A DNA stretch of 64,000 bases from NCBI GenBank assembly GCA_965207375.1, contig OZ242274.1:896001-960000 (forward strand), read 5' to 3'. Position 1 is the first letter of the stretch. Every line of letters starts with the position of its first letter. Shown here one piece after another: positions 3,991 to 44,803 of this stretch. Under the pieces are notes generated by a model. That model did no database searches. It was not told where the DNA came from and worked only from the letters and a program-made list of their open reading frames with translations. The position numbers were made by a program, and so were the translations under genes. Source of the DNA: Nitrosopumilaceae archaeon (GTDB lineage Archaea > Thermoproteota > Nitrososphaeria > Nitrososphaerales > Nitrosopumilaceae).

Positions 3991-4047
3991 GGAACTATCG
4001 ATGATTTAAGAAAGACTTAAAAAGATTCTAAATGGTATAAATCCAGA

Positions 4048-4410
4048 ATGACTCTTCCTAAAGGATTCGGTTCAGCAGGCGGTTCTGGCGGTTCAAGCGC
4101 AGACGTCGAAAAAATGATCGGCCGTCGTGTCGAGAATATGACTGGAATAATTACATTATCCTTTATCGCAGCATGGCTAGCAACATTTGGAGGAACTGCA
4201 GCAGGATATTTCTATTATCCTTGGGCATATCCAACACCAAGTGGTCACTATGCGTTCATTGTCCTCACAATTATCGAGGCAATTGGCTACATCTTCTCAG
4301 TTAAGGTCTGTGAAGAGGGTTCCAATAAGAATAGCAATGGCCTCGTAGGCGGTGTAATAGCAGCCGTAGCCGTTGGTACAGTAATTATCTCCTTGTACGT
4401 AGGAAACTAG
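4048..4410 (+). CDS. amoX: Ammonia monooxygenase-associated subunit AmoX
   Basis: MTLPKGFG...DVEKMIGRRVENM, YYPWAYPTPSGHYAF, three TM helices; directly upstream of amoA. Confidence 0.93.
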   Translation: MTLPKGFGSAGGSGGSSADVEKMIGRRVENMTGIITLSFIAAWLATFGGTAAGYFYYPWAYPTPSGHYAFIVLTIIEAIGYIFSVKVCEEGSNKNSNGLVGGVIAAVAVGTVIISLYVGN

Positions 4411-4520: not shown

Positions 4521-5171
4521 ATGGTCTGGCTTAGACGATGTACTCACTATTTATTCATAGTAGTGGTTGCAGTTAATTCGACCCTGTTAACAATTAACGC
4601 AGGAGACTACATCTTCTACACAGACTGGGCCTGGACATCGTTTGTAGTATTTTCAATATCGCAAACGCTTATGCTTGCAGTTGGTGCAGCATATTATCTA
4701 ACCTTCACAGGTGTTCCAGGAACAGCAACGTACTACGCATTAATTATGACTGTATACACGTGGATTGCAAAAGGTGCATGGTTTGCACTAGGATATCCAT
4801 ATGACTTCATTGTTACTCCAGTATGGCTACCATCAGCAATGTTGATGGATTTGGTATATTGGGCTACAAAGAAGAACAAGCACAGCTTGATACTGTTTGG
4901 CGGAGTACTAGTAGGAATGTCTTTACCATTGTTCAACATGGTAAACCTGATTACGGTCGCAGACCCACTTGAAACGGCCTTCAAGTATCCAAGACCAACA
5001 TTACCACCATACATGACACCAATTGAACCGCAAGTCGGCAAGTTCTATAACAGTCCGGTTGCATTGGGTGCAGGAGCTGGTGCTGTTTTGGCGTGTACTT
5101 TCATGGCGTTGGGTTGTAAACTCAATACTTGGACTTACAGATGGATGGCTGCATGGTCAAAGTGGGACTAA
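4521..5171 (+). CDS. amoA: Archaeal ammonia monooxygenase subunit A
   Basis: MVWLRRCTHYLF...AGDYIFYTDWAW...WMAAWSKWD, 216 aa. Confidence 0.99.
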   Translation: MVWLRRCTHYLFIVVVAVNSTLLTINAGDYIFYTDWAWTSFVVFSISQTLMLAVGAAYYLTFTGVPGTATYYALIMTVYTWIAKGAWFALGYPYDFIVTPVWLPSAMLMDLVYWATKKNKHSLILFGGVLVGMSLPLFNMVNLITVADPLETAFKYPRPTLPPYMTPIEPQVGKFYNSPVALGAGAGAVLACTFMALGCKLNTWTYRWMAAWSKWD

Positions 5172-37233: not shown

Positions 37234-37462
37234 TGATTATCAAACTCCAAAGGGGTTTAAAAAACATTCAGAGTCTTGTACGTCTATGTTTGCTGCCTAC
37301 TCTCCAAAGGAGAACGCCTGTATCCATAAAGCCGATATGGAGTACAAAGAACTAACACTCTTCAAGCCTGAAACTTGACCAATTGTAGGTATTTCATTAT
37401 GTGAATAACTCGTTCGAGCTTTGAACCAATTTTTTTAAAAAACCTCGATTTCATTAATTATC

Positions 37463-37849
37463 ATGTTCAGAGCCGAGTATATCTTGGAGAAAAAATCCAC
37501 ACTATTTGGTCTGGTATTTGTAATAGTGGGCTCTTTGGCATTACCAATTATCACACCACACCTATTTCATGGATATCATTTTTTTCACATTTTACTTCAT
37601 GTGGCAGGAATCACTTTGTCCTCATTTCTTACTGCTATTGCAATAATTGCATTTTACCGATTGCGAACAAAACGTATGATGTTGACGATGATTGCCTTTA
37701 CCGTATTTGCTACTGCAGAGTCTGTTGCTCTAGTTGGCACAACATGGCCCACGTATGATGTTGGAATGATATCTTTATTAGAGGTCGGGCACCTGCTTGT
37801 AATTACCTCAATGGGCCTGCTGGCAATGGGAGTATTTAGAAATGATTAA
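37463..37849 (+). CDS. His-rich four-TM membrane protein
   Basis: PHLFHGYHFFHILLH loop, EVGH; overlaps the next gene by 8 nt. Confidence 0.75.
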   Translation: MFRAEYILEKKSTLFGLVFVIVGSLALPIITPHLFHGYHFFHILLHVAGITLSSFLTAIAIIAFYRLRTKRMMLTMIAFTVFATAESVALVGTTWPTYDVGMISLLEVGHLLVITSMGLLAMGVFRND

Positions 37850-38345
37850 AGATAGAAAATTACAATTAACTCAAATTATAGAAAAAAACCCAGGCCTTAA
37901 CTTTAGAGACTTGATGAGGAATACTGGAATGAAAAACGGTGTATTGAGTCATCATCTTTCCAATTTAGAAAAGCTCGGTTCTGTATGTGTGGTTCGTGGA
38001 CCAAGACAGTCAAGATTTTATCCGCCAAATTTATCAGAACAAGAATCCAAAATTATCAAGGCCCTAAGACGCCAAACTCCCAAATCGATTATTCAGGCAT
38101 TGATACTACATGATTTACTAGAGTTTAAGTCAATTGTTAATCATACAAAAAAATCCGCATCTACTGTTTCATTGTACCTGTCACAGCTAGTAGATGATGA
38201 AATTGTACGAATAAAAATGTCTGATAGAGTAAAACAGTACTATCTTGATGATAAGAAAACCATAGACAAACTAATTGACGACTATCATCCTGAACTATTG
38301 GACAAACCCACATCTGGATTCGAAGATATTATTAATTCACTTTAG
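37842..38345 (+). CDS. Tandem winged-helix transcriptional regulator
   Basis: PGLNFRDLMR...GVLSHHLSNLE and a second HTH SASTVSLYLSQL. Confidence 0.85.
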   Translation: MIKDRKLQLTQIIEKNPGLNFRDLMRNTGMKNGVLSHHLSNLEKLGSVCVVRGPRQSRFYPPNLSEQESKIIKALRRQTPKSIIQALILHDLLEFKSIVNHTKKSASTVSLYLSQLVDDEIVRIKMSDRVKQYYLDDKKTIDKLIDDYHPELLDKPTSGFEDIINSL

Positions 38346-38356
38346 AAACCATTGTT

Positions 38357-39433
38357 GTGAAGTATTTACTTGTATTTTCTGCTCTAGTGCTGTTTCTACC
38401 TTTGGCCCATGCCGAGGTCAAGATTTCAGACGGCGCGTATGTAAGTTATTTTGATAGCGAGGGAATCTATACTGTAGTAGGAGCCATAAAAAACACGGGA
38501 GATGACTGGATTGTACCCTTCATTACCGTATCATTTGAGGAAACAGAGTTATTTTCCAAAACCTTCTCATTTGTCCCAATTGGGCCAGATTCTGAACAAC
38601 CCTTCAAAGTAAAGTTTCCTCAACACAAACTGTCAAATCCGACTCTTCACGAGCCAAAATTAGAACATAAGGTTGTAACCAAACAAAATCCTCTAGACGT
38701 TGATGTCATTTATGATGATACTCTGATTACCCATTTGGATGGACACAAAACAGGCAGAATTGTAAACAATGGTAACTATACAGTTGACTATCTTAAGGTT
38801 TATGCGCTGATCTATTCTGAAGATGGGAGACTACTTGACATGGGACAAAGTGTTGAAATTTTTCAAAGATTAGGGCCCGGCGAAATTGGAGAATTTACTA
38901 TTTTTCCAGATCCTTCTGTGGCATCAGATGCCTACTATTACAGCTGTTTTGCAGTAGGTGATGCATCTGTAATTGAATACGAGACCCTTAGAAAAGGCGA
39001 TCCTTATTTGTTTCGTTATGATTCAGGCGCATGGTTTGCTTTTGCTACATTTAGTGATGATGGTAGTACATTGACGCTAAAAACACAAAATAGTTTTCCA
39101 TTAGAGATGGGAGCAAATTTAGAATTTCCACAACACTCTGATGATGAAAGCTTTGATGTTTTGCTCAACGGTGTATCTGTAGATGCAAAACAAAGTCTTG
39201 ATGAGATGGGAAACTGGCATGTTGTGTTCACGATGCCTGCATATTCTAGTGGTTTTATAACAATTTCTGGCTTTGAGGACAAAGAGTCAACATCTGCCTT
39301 TGACGAAATTTTATTAGAAACGCCTGTTGATACTGTTTTAATGGAATTTGATGTATCATATCTGTATTATCTGGGAATTATACCTGTAATTGCAGTTGCG
39401 GTAATAGTTATAGCGTACAAGAGAAGATTCTGA
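38357..39433 (+). CDS. Exported protein with a C-terminal TM anchor (FxLYD-like)
   Basis: Signal peptide, VVGAIKN / ALIYSEDG repeats, C-terminal TM followed by KRR. Confidence 0.75.
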   Translation: MKYLLVFSALVLFLPLAHAEVKISDGAYVSYFDSEGIYTVVGAIKNTGDDWIVPFITVSFEETELFSKTFSFVPIGPDSEQPFKVKFPQHKLSNPTLHEPKLEHKVVTKQNPLDVDVIYDDTLITHLDGHKTGRIVNNGNYTVDYLKVYALIYSEDGRLLDMGQSVEIFQRLGPGEIGEFTIFPDPSVASDAYYYSCFAVGDASVIEYETLRKGDPYLFRYDSGAWFAFATFSDDGSTLTLKTQNSFPLEMGANLEFPQHSDDESFDVLLNGVSVDAKQSLDEMGNWHVVFTMPAYSSGFITISGFEDKESTSAFDEILLETPVDTVLMEFDVSYLYYLGIIPVIAVAVIVIAYKRRF

Positions 39434-39437
39434 ACTG

Positions 39438-39462
39438 TTGGTACATTTGTAGAATGTACTAA
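39438..39462. promoter_or_regulatory. Palindromic operator candidate upstream of the CHRD gene
   Basis: ttggtacatt-N5-aatgtactaa (9/10 inverted match); contains TACAttTGTA. Confidence 0.45.
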
Positions 39463-39474
39463 GAGTTTCATATA

Positions 39475-42400
39475 GTGTCTGTGAAAATTCGTCTTGTGCA
39501 ACGATTCGGTGGAACTAGCTTCATTTTCTTGGTTATAATCATGGGATTAGGCTCATTTACAATTTTTACTGAAATTCAAACTGATGAAACTAGACACTTT
39601 GAATTTCCTTTAAATTATTTTTCTATACAAAAAGTATGGGGCCACGACGGTGATGGTGATGGAATTGATGATGATACGGGAATACCTGTAATTGATGAGG
39701 CATCAGTTGATCCATTTCCTAGTTCTGGGGATGATTTTCGGGCCACTTTGAATGCTGCTGGAATTATTGGTGCAGGCGGCTCTACAAATAGTACAGGCAC
39801 TGCCACTGCCACATTGCTGTGGAGTGAAAACCAAGAAAGATTGCAATATGAAATTGAATTTTCTGGATTTATCTTAGATTCTAATGGAAACAGCACGCAT
39901 GAAAATGTGACCAAAGTACACATTCATATCGGTGATGTGGATTCTGCTGGACCTCATGCATTAAATATATTTGGTGGACCTGTTCCTGCGACAACTCAGC
40001 CACGCTCTGATGATTTTGATTTTGAATTAAGGTCAGATGATTATGTAATGTATGGAATATGGGGAGACAATGATCAACGAACTACCGGGTTATCTGATGC
40101 AGGTCGAAGCAAACAACTTTCAGATATGAGAGAGGAGTTATGTTCTGAAGATCTATATTTCCAAGTTCATACGAATTGGAATCCGGCAGGTGCAATTCGG
40201 GGCCAAATAGAAAAAACATCTGAATTGTGTGATTTTGATTTGACCACCGATCAATTTTCTAGCATCTTAAATCGTCAAAAGGTTGTAGCAGTAGGTGGAT
40301 CCTCATCTCAAACCGGTACTGGAACTGCTGAATTTCATTTTAATGCAGATCATACCCAGCTATACTATAGAATTCAATTCAACAACATCGATCTTAACGG
40401 TACTACATATGATACTGATGATGACTTGACAAAACTTCACATTCATCAAGGCGATGCAGATGTAGGTCACGGTGATCATGCTCTTAACATCTTTGGATTG
40501 CCTTCTGAGGATGATGTACAGATGGACTTTGATGAAGAGCAGCTAATAATTACTGGAATTTGGGATGATTCTGATGCAGTTTTAACAGGTACTGATGCAG
40601 GACGCTCTCATAAACTATCTGACATGATTGGACAATTATGCTCTGATAACTTGTATCTGCAAGCACATACTGACATTGGAAACATTCGTGGACAAATAGA
40701 ACTGCAAAATCATGATTTGTGTGATTTTGATCCGCTACAAACTGACTTTTACACCGTCATAGACGAATCTCAAATAGGTAGTGGTACCGGAAGCTTGGCA
40801 ACTGGCACTGCAAAATTCAGATTTAATTCACACGGTGATCAGTTACAATATGAAATATCACTGATTGGAATAGATACTGATGATGTTCAAACAATTGATA
40901 CTGCACTTGATGATTTAACTGCAATTCATTTTCATAATGCCCCTGCTGGAAAAAATAGTACTGTACACCTTCTTAATATTTTTGGTCCACCTGCAAGAGA
41001 TGATGACGACTTTGTTTTAACTCCTGGCAATGGAACAATTACTGGAATTTGGGACGATGGTGATGAATCATTTTTGCCTAGTGAAAATGGTCGTACAAAA
41101 ACTCTTACCTCTAGTATAGGTGAACTGTGTGCCGGAAATGTGTACATAAACGTGCATACACAAAGTCATAGTACAGGGGAAATTAGAGGACAAATACTCC
41201 CAACAGATGATAATGTTAGATGTGACTTTGATTTGACTGAGCATGATTTTGTTGCTACACTAACTGAATGCAAAATTGATCTTGCCAACGGCGATATCGC
41301 TAAATGTAGTGAAAATAACGAACACGGTTCTGATGATCACAGTTCTAACGAACACGGTCATCAAAGCAATGATGCTGAAATATCATCTAGTGCTGAAATG
41401 TTCTTGAATGGAGATAAAAGCAAAATGTACTATGTAATTGACTTTGACGGAATGGATGTGACCGGAATGAACACTACCGGAGGTCAATCTATTGATACAC
41501 GAGAAGATGATCTTTATAAAATCCATCTTCATTTTGGGAACGCAACTGAGGTTGGAGGTGCACATGCATTTAATATCTTAAGGCCAAATGGAGATGCCGA
41601 TGACATGCACATTGATAATGGCACCGGTATTGTTACCGGAACTTGGGAGCCTACAGATACTGCAAATAACCCTGCCATAAGACTTGTTGATATATTTGAT
41701 GATCTTTGCAATGAAAATATTTACTTTAACATACACAGCCCCGGAGGAACACACGGTTCGGCAGGAATTATTCGCGGACAAATAGAGCCTGATAGACACA
41801 GTGCCATATGTGACCCTCCATCTGTTCTTAGTGCAACGCTTACAAATTCCACCTCGATTAAGTTTGTATTTTCAACTCCCATCAATTCCACGTCTCTATC
41901 TGTCGATGATTTTACTACATTAGATCTTAATGGAACTGCAATCAGTTCAGTAATTGCTTCTGACTTTGCCAGAAAAGGTATTGTAACTGTAATATTGGAT
42001 TCTCCTGTAAGTTCAGATTATGTTTCTAATGGTTTTGTCAACATTGAATCTACACTTACAAGCGATATAGGAATTGAATTTGATACTGATGCAAACCCCA
42101 TCCCTATATCAAATGCATTATCTGGAGTTCCCTTATCTGTAACTCCTGAAAATTCTAACATCGTTTTGGACCCTTATTCAACCCTTGATCTTATTGTAAT
42201 TCACCATGATGCTACTGCTCCGATACTTGACTTTCGTGGTTTGAGAACTACTGATAACATTACTGTTCCTGGACAAACCAAAATCATCTTCCCCAACGGA
42301 ATTAATACCACGTCTGGTTCTAGACAAAACACTTTGATTGAATTTCCAGACGGTTTAGAAATCACAGGCAATACGGTCAATTTTGATGGTCAATTTGTAT

Positions 42401-43725
42401 TACCATCTTTTTCAATATCCTGCGGTGATACCGAATCATGTGTATCTCTTGGCAGTCCATCTGCACAACTGTACCTGAGCAGTCCTGTCAGGATTACCTT
42501 TATTGGCGATGCAGGTAAAACTCCTATTTTCATAGTAGGTGATCAGCCTAGAATTATTATTACTGCTCAATGTGACGGCGTTGACACACCTAAGGTGGGA
42601 GGTATTACAATTTCCTCTGGCACTACCAATGAAGAATGCTTTGTTAACGATTCAGGAGATTTGCATATTTGGACAACCCACTTTACTGTCTTTGGTGCAA
42701 CAAGAGATGGCATATCTGACACATCTTTTGATGCAGGTAGCACATCTAGGTCATCTAGTGGAGGTGGAGGTAAACCTACTGCAATATTGGCACCAAACCT
42801 GATTTCTTACAATGTGTGTGACGAATCTATTGACGGACTAGTCAGAGTTTTAACATTTAATGTACGCAACATTGATCAAATCGGAGTCAATCTGTATACT
42901 GATGACTATATTGCTTATGGAAAAGACATCTCCAACTTAATGTCTCCCTCTATGTATATTGACAGGATAAGTAATGATTATGTTTATACAATATTTGATG
43001 CTAAAATCCCCTCTGGAACAGAAAAATTCTTTGTAACCGTTTATGATACAGAACGAAACAAGGCAACTACATCCACACTAGTGGATCTTCGAAATAATCA
43101 ATGCGCCGATAACTTGTTTCCTCATGAGCTGAAAGATAAGGATGCCAATTTCTTGCCTATTGAACCATTAGATCAGTCATCATTTATGGTTCCTATGGAG
43201 GAACTAGTCACCGAATCCTTGGATAAATCTATAAAATTTGTAAGCAATTCGGTTTCAGATGTTAACGGCAAGGAAATCAAGGTACTTGTTAGATCTTCAC
43301 AATATGTAACAAAAGCGCCCGAACAAATCGTCCAACCAACCGAAATAATTACAGAATCTACTCCTGAATCTGAGTCACTTGAAAACAATACTAGTACAAA
43401 ATTAATTGAACCAACTATACCTGAACCAACACTAGACTCGATACCTGAACCAACCATATCCGAACCAACACTAGAACCAACACTAGAACCAACACTAGAA
43501 CCAACACTAGACTCGATACCTGAACCAACCATATCCGAACCAACACTAGAACCAACACTAGAACCAACACTAGAACCAACACTAGACTCGATACCTGAAC
43601 CAACCATATCCGAACCAACACTAGAACCAACACTAGACTCGATATCCGAACCAACCATATCCGAACCAACACTAGACTCGAAACCTAACCTCTTTGAACA
43701 AATTATTTCTTGGCTGTTTGGATAA
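39475..43725 (+). CDS. Large surface protein with four CHRD domains and an EPT-repeat stalk
   Basis: Four repeats of HxH...H(A/L)(L/F)NI...LC..(N/D).Y..(V/A/I)H(T/S)..G.IRGQI; N-terminal TM; C-terminal FEQIISWLFG. Confidence 0.85.
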   Translation: MSVKIRLVQRFGGTSFIFLVIIMGLGSFTIFTEIQTDETRHFEFPLNYFSIQKVWGHDGDGDGIDDDTGIPVIDEASVDPFPSSGDDFRATLNAAGIIGAGGSTNSTGTATATLLWSENQERLQYEIEFSGFILDSNGNSTHENVTKVHIHIGDVDSAGPHALNIFGGPVPATTQPRSDDFDFELRSDDYVMYGIWGDNDQRTTGLSDAGRSKQLSDMREELCSEDLYFQVHTNWNPAGAIRGQIEKTSELCDFDLTTDQFSSILNRQKVVAVGGSSSQTGTGTAEFHFNADHTQLYYRIQFNNIDLNGTTYDTDDDLTKLHIHQGDADVGHGDHALNIFGLPSEDDVQMDFDEEQLIITGIWDDSDAVLTGTDAGRSHKLSDMIGQLCSDNLYLQAHTDIGNIRGQIELQNHDLCDFDPLQTDFYTVIDESQIGSGTGSLATGTAKFRFNSHGDQLQYEISLIGIDTDDVQTIDTALDDLTAIHFHNAPAGKNSTVHLLNIFGPPARDDDDFVLTPGNGTITGIWDDGDESFLPSENGRTKTLTSSIGELCAGNVYINVHTQSHSTGEIRGQILPTDDNVRCDFDLTEHDFVATLTECKIDLANGDIAKCSENNEHGSDDHSSNEHGHQSNDAEISSSAEMFLNGDKSKMYYVIDFDGMDVTGMNTTGGQSIDTREDDLYKIHLHFGNATEVGGAHAFNILRPNGDADDMHIDNGTGIVTGTWEPTDTANNPAIRLVDIFDDLCNENIYFNIHSPGGTHGSAGIIRGQIEPDRHSAICDPPSVLSATLTNSTSIKFVFSTPINSTSLSVDDFTTLDLNGTAISSVIASDFARKGIVTVILDSPVSSDYVSNGFVNIESTLTSDIGIEFDTDANPIPISNALSGVPLSVTPENSNIVLDPYSTLDLIVIHHDATAPILDFRGLRTTDNITVPGQTKIIFPNGINTTSGSRQNTLIEFPDGLEITGNTVNFDGQFVLPSFSISCGDTESCVSLGSPSAQLYLSSPVRITFIGDAGKTPIFIVGDQPRIIITAQCDGVDTPKVGGITISSGTTNEECFVNDSGDLHIWTTHFTVFGATRDGISDTSFDAGSTSRSSSGGGGKPTAILAPNLISYNVCDESIDGLVRVLTFNVRNIDQIGVNLYTDDYIAYGKDISNLMSPSMYIDRISNDYVYTIFDAKIPSGTEKFFVTVYDTERNKATTSTLVDLRNNQCADNLFPHELKDKDANFLPIEPLDQSSFMVPMEELVTESLDKSIKFVSNSVSDVNGKEIKVLVRSSQYVTKAPEQIVQPTEIITESTPESESLENNTSTKLIEPTIPEPTLDSIPEPTISEPTLEPTLEPTLEPTLDSIPEPTISEPTLEPTLEPTLEPTLDSIPEPTISEPTLEPTLDSISEPTISEPTLDSKPNLFEQIISWLFG
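43406..43680 (+). repeat. Intragenic tandem repeat (gaaccaacacta 12-mers nested in ~75-bp units) encoding EPTL/EPTIS/EPTLDSIP
   Basis: Directly visible in the sequence; all units in frame. Confidence 0.92.
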
Positions 43726-44803
43726 ATTGAACGCTAAAATATTTCTTGTCTTACTGTTCCTTCTTCCGTTAGGATTTTCTTATGCAGACCATGGTAGTGG
43801 CGGAGGCACCGGCAGCTGTGGCGGAGATTGTACTGCGCCTACCTTGGGCGAGGACAATTCTGGCAAACAGTTTGTGGCAGGTGGACTTGGAATTAACGGC
43901 AAGTTTTTTGATGTAAAAGGATTCAAACAGGACATACCCACTCAAACTCTCACTATAGGAGAGCCCAATGAAATAATAATCAAGGTATATGAAAACAAAG
44001 GAGTCCATCAATTTGCCCATGCTAGTTTAATGCTTGGCCTAGAAAATGAGATAATCAATGGAATCTCTGTAACCACTCATCCTGTAACTTTGACGTGGGA
44101 AAAAACTTTTGATGGAACAGTCTCAGTAAACGTAGATGATAAAAATAGCCTGCTTGCAGACATTGACATTTCCTCTGATCTAACTCGTGATATATTTGGA
44201 AATGAAGACAACCTACTTGAGATAACATTTAGCTTTGTCCCCCTACAGAATTTTGATCCTAGCGTCATAATAGTACAAATCTGGGATCAAAGCAGAAATA
44301 GCTGGACCAATTATTTTTATGATGCATTTGAAATCAATTCTGCTGATACCATAATATCTCAAATTGAAGATATTTCAATTAAAAATCCAAATGACGATAT
44401 ACTTGTCATTCCCACATGGCTAAAGCTAAATGCACAACTGTGGTCACAAAATCAACTAGATGATTCAACCTTTGTTGAGGCAATAAAATACTGTATAGAC
44501 AATAAAATAATGAATATTCCAAATCTGCCTAATTATCAGCCTGAAGATGTTTTGTCCTTTGTAGACGTAAAAAAAGGACCACAATACTATCTTGACAGAT
44601 ATTATAACGAGCCAATCTACAGAACATGGTTTGATGAAAACTTTCCAGACTATACCATAGAGCAGGCAGTGGGATTAAACACATCATCTATTCCTGCATG
44701 GGTAAAAAACAATGCCGATTTATGGGCAAACAACATGATCTCTGACTCTGATTTTGTTGTTGGAATAGAGTACTTGGTCAAAAACGGCATTATCGTCATT
44801 TAG
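43694..44803 (+). CDS. Secreted protein with IPxWxKxNA cell-surface repeats
   Basis: Signal peptide then DHGSGGG..CGGDCTAPTLG; IPTWLKLNA and IPAWVKNNA..W repeats typical of Nitrosopumilaceae. Confidence 0.8.
   Translation: MNKLFLGCLDKLNAKIFLVLLFLLPLGFSYADHGSGGGTGSCGGDCTAPTLGEDNSGKQFVAGGLGINGKFFDVKGFKQDIPTQTLTIGEPNEIIIKVYENKGVHQFAHASLMLGLENEIINGISVTTHPVTLTWEKTFDGTVSVNVDDKNSLLADIDISSDLTRDIFGNEDNLLEITFSFVPLQNFDPSVIIVQIWDQSRNSWTNYFYDAFEINSADTIISQIEDISIKNPNDDILVIPTWLKLNAQLWSQNQLDDSTFVEAIKYCIDNKIMNIPNLPNYQPEDVLSFVDVKKGPQYYLDRYYNEPIYRTWFDENFPDYTIEQAVGLNTSSIPAWVKNNADLWANNMISDSDFVVGIEYLVKNGIIVI

Follow-up and report, generated by a model that had tools for sequence, protein, structure and literature searches.

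A five-gene archaeal block encoding a four-CHRD surface protein, a possible genus-specific outpost of the CopC/D copper regulon

The energy metabolism of ammonia-oxidizing archaea depends on copper enzymes. Here, we describe a block of five genes, designated A to E, in a window of 64,000 nucleotides (nt) from a Nitrosopumilaceae archaeon (C1:896001-960000; genome of 4.3 Mb in four contigs, rated 99.95% complete), an organism recognized as an ammonia oxidizer because archaeal amoA lies inside the window. As judged from sequence comparison, the block most likely belongs to the regulon that responds to copper limitation and contains the CopC/D genes. The best explanation at present, to which a probability of roughly 0.4 is assigned, is that these genes form an outpost, specific to the genus, of the CopC/D regulon of archaea, in which D, a surface protein carrying four CHRD domains, is proposed to bind copper and feed it to CopC/D. 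The regulatory link between the block and the CopC/D regulon is well supported by comparative evidence, and the histidine (His) sites of the CHRD domains are the best candidates for copper binding.

Promoter element shared with the CopC/D regulon

A study on Nitrososphaera viennensis reports that genes induced under copper limitation carry the motif TTCSGSMTTTGWACYANT at −35 to −70, and that the induced genes include CopC/D (NVIE_014300), a hypothetical gene (NVIE_014290), and an ArsR gene (NVIE_014280), with log2 fold changes of 2.68, 2.72, and 2.47, respectively; the regulation of the Cop genes is stated there as an open question (Reyes et al. 2020, PMC7785015). The upstream region of NVIE_014290 holds ttctggctttgtaccaat, which by our own count starts ~55 nt before the start codon and is followed by a TATA-like run. 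An element of the same kind precedes gene A (Table 1), and the T/A run that directly follows it is likely the TATA box of the A promoter. Judging from gene order and promoter, NVIE_014290 and NVIE_014280 are likely the counterparts of A and B.

The window holds four matches to the motif at no more than two mismatches, compared with 0.26 expected. In 13 cassettes from two families, the element precedes A at a distance of 50 to 55 nt, and its core is identical in the two genomes of the same genus that carry the orthologous block (G004 and G002), although flanks and GC content have diverged. The second copy, which stands before D within the inverted repeat GTACATT-N5-AATGTAC, is kept in the corresponding position of both G004 and G002 with one mismatch each, amid diverged GC-rich sequence. 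Across the 4.3-Mb genome, the consensus TTYNANNNNTGWACCART has just two exact matches: one before A, by construction, and one in the 127-nt divergent spacer between a p233-like gene and CopC/D. According to our own arithmetic, which starts from 2.6 matches expected per genome, the chance of an exact match falling in this spacer is ~7 × 10−5. Moreover, 23 CopC/D loci (336 kb) contain nine exact matches against ~0.2 expected, or seven when the two used in building the consensus are set aside, and the motif is present with at most one mismatch in half of the divergent p233/CopC/D spacers (7/14). The copper reading offered in the first-pass annotation of this DNA is supported in part, by CopC/D synteny and by the shared copper-limitation promoter motif; the His-rich insert of D that was also noted is not conserved. 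A further copy of the motif with two mismatches, TTCTGGATTTATACCATT, is located at 4031-4048 on the minus strand, where it abuts the beginning of an ORF (open reading frame) at 4048-4410, just upstream of amoA (4521-5171).

The CopC/D genes of this genome are flanked by the usual exported neighbors, p233-like and "HGxG." The CopC/D clusters of both families share such unnamed exported protein families, whose predicted mature N-termini start with or beside His, namely AHxT/AHITKV ("p233"), HGxGG[DE] ("HGxG"), and YAHNFGGDES ("p339"); none of the three has a Pfam match at E ≤ 1 × 10−3. A NikR-like gene is also frequent in CopC/D clusters. The copy in this genome, between CopC/D and the HGxG-type gene (L068:4650-5053; C1 ~454,900-455,330), is frameshifted with an early stop, intact homologs belong to the CopC/D clusters of nine other genomes, and a second NikR-like copy is present at C1 ~361,000.

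Gene layout and conservation of the block

The five ORFs lie on one strand between 37463 and 44803 and are nearly gapless: A and B overlap by 8 nt, B and C are separated by 11 nt, C and D by 41 nt, and D and E overlap by 32 nt, which becomes a 1-nt gap if E begins at TTG 43727. These coordinates confirm the initial description of five tightly packed or overlapping genes on the same strand. Full-length D was recovered from two of the 40 relatives searched, G004 and G002, at ~50% identity; in both, the order A-B-C-D-E is kept between the same housekeeping genes, so the block is a conserved unit. The third additional member of the genus (G001) retains only residues 1-76 of A at the same S11/thiL site, and the search recovered neither A nor D from the fourth (G003). 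A genome of another genus (G019) possesses A, B, a broken C, and a match to the IPxW repeats of E in the absence of D, which bears out the expectation that the CHRD gene is a variable insertion in this locus. Contigs of a further study contain the locus, D included, at ~95% identity. Judged by eye from the sequence and from dense ORFs in all frames, the G+C content of the G004 and G002 loci is apparently much above that of this window (36-41%); the promoter element and the inverted repeat between C and D are unchanged despite this shift.

Table 1. Positions of genes, domains, and promoter elements of the block within the window
Feature	Position	Strand	Description and basis
Promoter element TTCGAGCTTTGAACCAAT	37413-37430	+	18 nt; 17/18 positions of the motif; starts 50 nt before A
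T/A run TTTTTTAAAAAA	37431-37442	+	Directly after the element; conserved as TTTTTTTAAA in three orthologous loci
Gene A	37463-37849	+	128-residue four-helix membrane protein with conserved His/Glu cluster (alignments; AlphaFold2, AF2)
Gene B	37842-38345	+	167-residue tandem winged-helix, ArsR-like, HVO_0163-type DNA-binding protein (HTH_5; HTH_HVO_0163_N; alignment)
Gene C	38357-39433	+	358-residue exported FxLYD-domain protein, C-terminal membrane anchor (NF038353)
Second element copy TTCTACAAATGTACCAAC	39437-39454	−	Matches the consensus at 17/18 positions; antisense to D, with its end 21 nt from the D start
Gene D	39475-43725	+	1416-residue acidic surface protein, isoelectric point (pI) 4.2, four CHRD domains
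CHRD repeat 1	39730-40236 (residues 86-254)	+	Pfam, alignment
CHRD repeat 2	40243-40728 (residues 257-418)	+	Pfam, alignment
CHRD repeat 3	40735-41229 (residues 421-585)	+	Modeled repeat
CHRD repeat 4	41233-41817 (residues 587-781)	+	Includes His-rich insert, 41314-41361
D domain "X"	42433-42774 (residues 987-1100)	+	Common to giant surface proteins of related genera
D linker	43345-43680 (residues ~1291-1402)	+	EPTL/Pro-Thr-Glu-rich repeats; sequence
Gene E	43694-44803 (likelier start 43727)	+	Secreted protein; N-terminal domain "Y"; IPxWxKxNA repeats

CHRD domains of D

D, the sole CHRD gene product of the genome, matches the Pfam CHRD family (PF07452) with 182.9 bits against a cut-off of 24.1 (E = 4 × 10−54) in four stretches, all of which exceed the cut-off. 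Each repeat had been said to keep four His and a pair of cysteines (Cys), and these positions are found in all four repeats: an HxH at residues 149/151, 322/324, 485/487, and 684/686; a single further His at 161, 335, 498, and 697; the His of a YxxxH at 232, 398, 561, and 754; and Cys pairs at 223-252, 389-416, 552-583, and 745-779. The HxH, the further His, the YxxxH, and the Cys pair are all invariant across the 12 repeats of the three orthologs. The insert reported in repeat 4, NEHGSDDHSSNEHGHQ, is real (residues 614-629) and absent from both orthologs.

A profile made from the 12 repeats matched 3,895 representative proteins (clusters) at E ≤ 1 × 10−3, and residue conservation was counted in the 138 nearly complete domains that the 150 best matches yielded. 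In this set, the two His of the HxH are kept in 134 and 131 domains, the Tyr and the His of the YxxxH in 136 and 132, and, in the last strand, the three residues of Arg-Gly-Gln in 135, 136, and 119, respectively; the fourth His is found in 78, and the two Cys in only 35 and 29. Partner domains were scanned in 66 of the 150 listed representatives; one of the 66 carries MbnP in the same chain and another carries tyrosinase, both of which are copper domains. CHRD genes occur in 45 of 301 genomes of the class, a tally that includes 29 of 39 in a sister family (f15) and 14 of 180 in the family of the organism studied here. By our reading, all 28 archaeal CHRD genes with a complete N-terminus, among 30 sampled, begin with a hydrophobic, signal-like segment. 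The domain, whose original description is said to be that of Hyvonen in 2003, had been flagged as undescribed in function in prokaryotes; in agreement with this, no paper describing such a function was found. Within the openly readable literature, neither a metal function for microbial CHRD nor an account of an A-type membrane protein turned up.

The AF2 model of repeat 3 has a predicted local distance difference test (pLDDT) score of 93.4 and contains eight main strands. Searched with Foldseek, it retrieved superoxide dismutases (SODs) throughout the matches listed, and in VIA-align the first 14 rows are SOD, SOD-like, or CCS structures with Z scores of 7.0-9.1, the best matches being Cu,Zn-SOD, Cu-only SOD, or CCS. 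The resemblance of CHRD to the Cu/Zn-SOD β-barrel, mentioned in the first-pass annotation, is recovered from the model. H65 and H67 end the fourth strand (60-68), H78 is in the strand 77-83, at the start of the fifth, and Y137 and H141 are in the strand 136-142, with H141 at the end of the seventh. In SOD, the copper ligands consist of an HxH on strand 4, a bridging His, and a His on strand 7, and the CHRD His are predicted to occupy strands that match those carrying these ligands. Eight residues (69-76) join strands 4 and 5 of the model, with no zinc loop bearing a His3Asp site, and only residues 143-149 lie between the last two strands; the corresponding zinc-binding loop of SOD measures ~34 residues, and its electrostatic loop is long. 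No such likeness was detected in sequence: PF00080 (Cu,Zn-SOD) matches nothing in this genome, the CHRD alignment compared with Escherichia coli SodC in hhalign gives a probability of 0.5%, which is not significant, a phmmer search of PDB sequences with D returns no match, and the 12-repeat profile finds in the PDB only chordin (E = 0.25) and ModA, both below the threshold. The repeats are acidic (pI 4.25-4.41), and mimicry of chordin, proposed earlier as an alternative role in host interaction, is unlikely on grounds of charge: the glycosaminoglycan site of human chordin was mapped with an R193A/R239A/R530A/H566A mutant (PMC13382577).

The A-B cassette

The His-rich sequence of A, HLFHGYHFFHILLH, is present, and 18 homologs without exception share P32, H42, H46, F55, E86, and H110, while conservation of H33 and H36 reaches at least 90%. 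The AF2 model of A (pLDDT 85.7) is a four-helix bundle with helices at 11-33, 37-67, 70-93, and 105-127. Because of the basic loop RLRTKR, the His/Glu cluster (H33, H36, H42, H46, E86, and H110) is taken to face outwards, and it probably sits near the predicted outer face. Neither A nor E has a family above the cut-off in Pfam or NCBIfam, DUF7471 (PF24283) scoring 15.5 bits with A under a cut-off of 27. By its fold, A matches only generic helical bundles (best Z 7.9), so that no family can be named.

B is matched by HTH_5 in two stretches (E = 4.3 × 10−13; 49.4 bits, cut-off 22), which identifies it as an ArsR-type winged helix-turn-helix (wHTH) protein, and by HTH_HVO_0163_N (36.3 bits, cut-off 31). 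It scores 33.4 bits with the NCBIfam metalloregulator model NF033788, below the cut-off of 55, and no Cys or His is invariant, or nearly so, in an alignment of ten homologs. A literature search on HVO_0163 turned up only unrelated acetylome work. The predicted B-A complex, obtained with our own alignments, has a score of 0.00, which is evidence neither way. In the preferred reading, translation of B is coupled to that of A. The cassette looks like a metal-linked pair of membrane protein and regulator, and A and B may act as sensor and regulator.

Outside the genus, eight loci have B next after A, as do both genus orthologs, and the A profile matches 39 of 41 genomes of the sister family f15, a count that includes one unpublished genome (G336), often in several copies. 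A CopC-CopD fusion stands directly upstream of the cassette in G009 and G014, and CopC/D adjoins it in two genomes of the sister family (G204 and G179). In two further cases, G181 and G205, A is next to a CHRD gene, and in G205, the divergent spacer of the pair contains the motif with one mismatch. The A gene of G181 (L064, 8131-10474) is degenerate, with its first His replaced by Arg and no B after it; a single-CHRD gene and an 83-residue wHTH gene follow.

Genes C and E and the remaining parts of D

C possesses an FxLYD domain (NF038353; 28.3 bits, cut-off 23; residues 132-183) together with, as read from its sequence, a signal peptide at the N-terminus and a hydrophobic anchor at the C-terminus, in keeping with the membrane-anchored exported protein described at the outset. 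It is found in 18 of 24 genomes of the family, and in four other genera, its homologs (G007, G020, G022, and G006, the last being broken) are 4-6 kb away from CopC/D. Atlas look-ups with C and with the N-terminal part of E returned only unnamed archaeal protein clusters.

Besides the CHRD domains, D has a hydrophobic segment at its N-terminus, a stretch of acidic residues with DGDGDG, unnamed domains, an EPTL-rich linker, and a conserved C-terminal tail, LFEQxxSWL. The acidic stretch at residues 57-85 (39643-39730), WxHDGDGDGxDDDT...DPFP, is invariant in the three orthologs and has no Pfam match; it presumably resembles calcium-binding motifs of the DxDxDG type. Domain X has matches in giant ORFs of 1,800-25,697 residues, in which an E-type N-terminal domain comes directly after it in the same ORF in five of five cases, and this arrangement suggests that D and E may work together. 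A relationship between residues 1090-1300 of D and the N-terminal domain of E was also considered; BLASTP gave E = 0.49, and no relationship is claimed. Public assemblies break in the linker of D, where pieces end at 43452 and 43615.

When started from TTG 43727, E reads as a signal peptide, MNAKIFLV...SYA, followed by a mature N-terminus of DHGSGGG, and the signal-peptidase site before DHG is plausible and conserved in the orthologs. Of the His-leading mature N-termini suggested in the first-pass annotation, that of E is plausible, and that of D (HDGDGD) has no obvious cleavage site nearby. The C-terminal part of E consists of three repeats of ~45 residues of the IPxWxKxNA type, beginning at ~44387, which belong to no Pfam family and have hundreds of matches, with representatives in all 24 family genomes.

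Proposed role and implications

Taken together, the block would be switched on along with CopC/D when copper is short, and D would display four acidic CHRD barrels of the SOD fold at the cell surface. Each barrel would offer a site of three to four His at the positions of the SOD copper ligands, with neither the zinc loop nor the long electrostatic loop of SOD. These sites may bind copper at the surface and feed it toward CopC/D, and E, with its IPxW repeats, may dock D. A more general conjecture, which is doubtful, holds that microbial CHRD domains are SOD-fold copper sites without the zinc loop, that in ammonia-oxidizing archaea they serve outside the cell as copper-capture or Cu-only redox modules of the CopC/D regulon, and that A-B is its missing sensor-regulator.

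If so, the locus would be the first regulatory handle on the large microbial CHRD family. It offers an 18-nt element that two archaeal families share, two genes that may form a sensor-regulator pair, and a surface protein whose sixteen conserved His would be placed as in the SOD copper site, and with these a concrete biochemical hypothesis for CHRD, a family with thousands of members.

Alternative explanations

Several observations weigh against an outpost of the copper regulon centered on D. The motif is not enriched genome-wide, with two exact matches where 2.6 are expected and, at no more than one mismatch, 87 where 82 are expected, and its weight therefore lies in where it is located. It also occurs in CopC/D clusters of genomes in which A was not found; B thus need not be its binding factor, and the motif would rather mark the regulon. 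The copy before D is antisense, and regulation there could run in either direction. In addition, the equivalence of NVIE_014290 and NVIE_014280 with A and B is drawn from gene order and promoter, not from protein sequence; the single A-B cassette of this genome is 480 kb from its own CopC/D; the CHRD gene is confined to three of the five genomes of the genus; and a search of sequencing runs found no RNA run holding the locus, the contigs with D in four runs being DNA. The metal, too, could differ. In G023, a second A-B copy adjoins a cation-diffusion-facilitator exporter and a Dps-like ferritin, and ZnuABC is downstream of the G009 cassette. Since His/Glu clusters are not copper-specific and NikR-like genes are so often met in CopC/D clusters, A-B might sense zinc, nickel, iron, or manganese, or a redox or envelope signal, with C, D, and E serving the corresponding homeostasis. 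We regard this as distinctly unlikely, given that the sole cassette here shares its promoter element with CopC/D and that the best-documented counterpart responds to copper limitation (PMC7785015).

The remaining explanations concern D itself. One makes it a catalytic Cu-only SOD-like or redox protein, either an extracellular SOD or a cupric reductase, that protects or serves the ammonia-oxidation machinery exposed at the surface and is co-regulated with copper supply because it needs copper. The fold and the His positions mirror SOD, with SOD5 (4n3t) among the best matches; the last-strand Arg-Gly-Gln, whose Arg we take to resemble the active-site Arg of SOD, is nearly invariant; a canonical Cu,Zn-SOD gene (Sod_Cu) occurs in none of 201 genomes of the class; and genomes of the sister family carry up to 14 secreted single-CHRD genes each. 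Such a role is nonetheless unlikely, as a copper-requiring enzyme would hardly be expected to be induced when copper is short (though regulation could run in either direction here), the fourth His is kept in just over half of the domains counted, and the model has only a short segment where SOD carries its long electrostatic loop. Somewhat less remote, yet still rather improbable, is that D and E belong among the common modular proteins of surfaces and adhesion, in which CHRD is structural or glycan-binding, the His serve the fold or another ligand, and the motif is a relic of a CopC/D neighborhood. Consistent with this are the joint occurrence of domain X and the E-type N-terminal domain in giant surface ORFs of related genera, the ubiquity of the IPxW repeats, and the partner domains of CHRD in the 66 scanned representatives, most of which are type IX secretion system (T9SS) tails, RTX repeats, and SusE, as would fit a generic surface module. 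Human chordin, the only CHRD protein with a solved structure (PDB 9RD6/9IGM), has the SOD-like fold with no metal seen and binds glycosaminoglycans, including heparan sulfate (PMC13382577). Furthermore, the motif core is absent within 200 nt upstream of all 30 single-domain CHRD genes checked in other ammonia-oxidizing archaea, for which reason a general link between CHRD and the regulon is rejected. On the other hand, the His triad is present in ~95% of the microbial domains and lost in chordin, acidic repeats are ill-suited to binding polyanions, and the element upstream of D has been kept in three genomes despite diverged flanks and GC content, which argues for function.

Comparison with known systems

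The CopC/D cluster of N. viennensis (NVIE_014160-014340; Reyes et al. 2020, PMC7785015) resembles the present system in having an operon of an ArsR gene and a small hypothetical gene beside CopC/D, with the promoter core TTTGWACCA 50-55 nt before the operon start, and its regulon likewise includes exported proteins of no assigned role. Here, unlike in N. viennensis, C, D, and E come after the cassette, which stands 480 kb away from CopC/D, and a CHRD protein is mentioned nowhere in that paper and its supplements (PMC7785015). The claim of an undescribed system holds only in part, since induction under copper limitation had already been reported for the ArsR-hypothetical pair beside CopC/D (PMC7785015). 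With the ArsR/SmtB metalloregulators, B shares the winged-helix fold and the context of metal genes; it differs in consisting of two wHTH halves in one chain, in lacking a conserved Cys/His metal site, and in having as its partner a His-rich membrane protein, the possible sensor.

Chordin and D have in common PF07452 and four tandem SOD-like barrels in one extracellular protein. In contrast to chordin, which lacks the archaeal His set and has Gly or Thr in place of the YxxxH His in the alignment, the repeats of the archaeal protein have an acidic pI, retain this His set, and carry an intradomain Cys pair. Relative to SOD, no relationship is detectable at the sequence level, the Cys pair of CHRD is elsewhere, and its fourth His is in a strand, whereas that of SOD is in a loop. 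Nevertheless, the Cu-only SOD5 of Candida albicans (4n3t), which we take to lack a zinc-binding loop as the CHRD repeat does, has the same Greek-key barrel (Z 8.6, 123 residues aligned), as does a loop-deleted SOD1 (Z 9.1), and CHRD, according to its model, shares with the Cu-only and Cu,Zn-SODs an HxH that ends the fourth strand, a His that ends the seventh, and an extracellular location.

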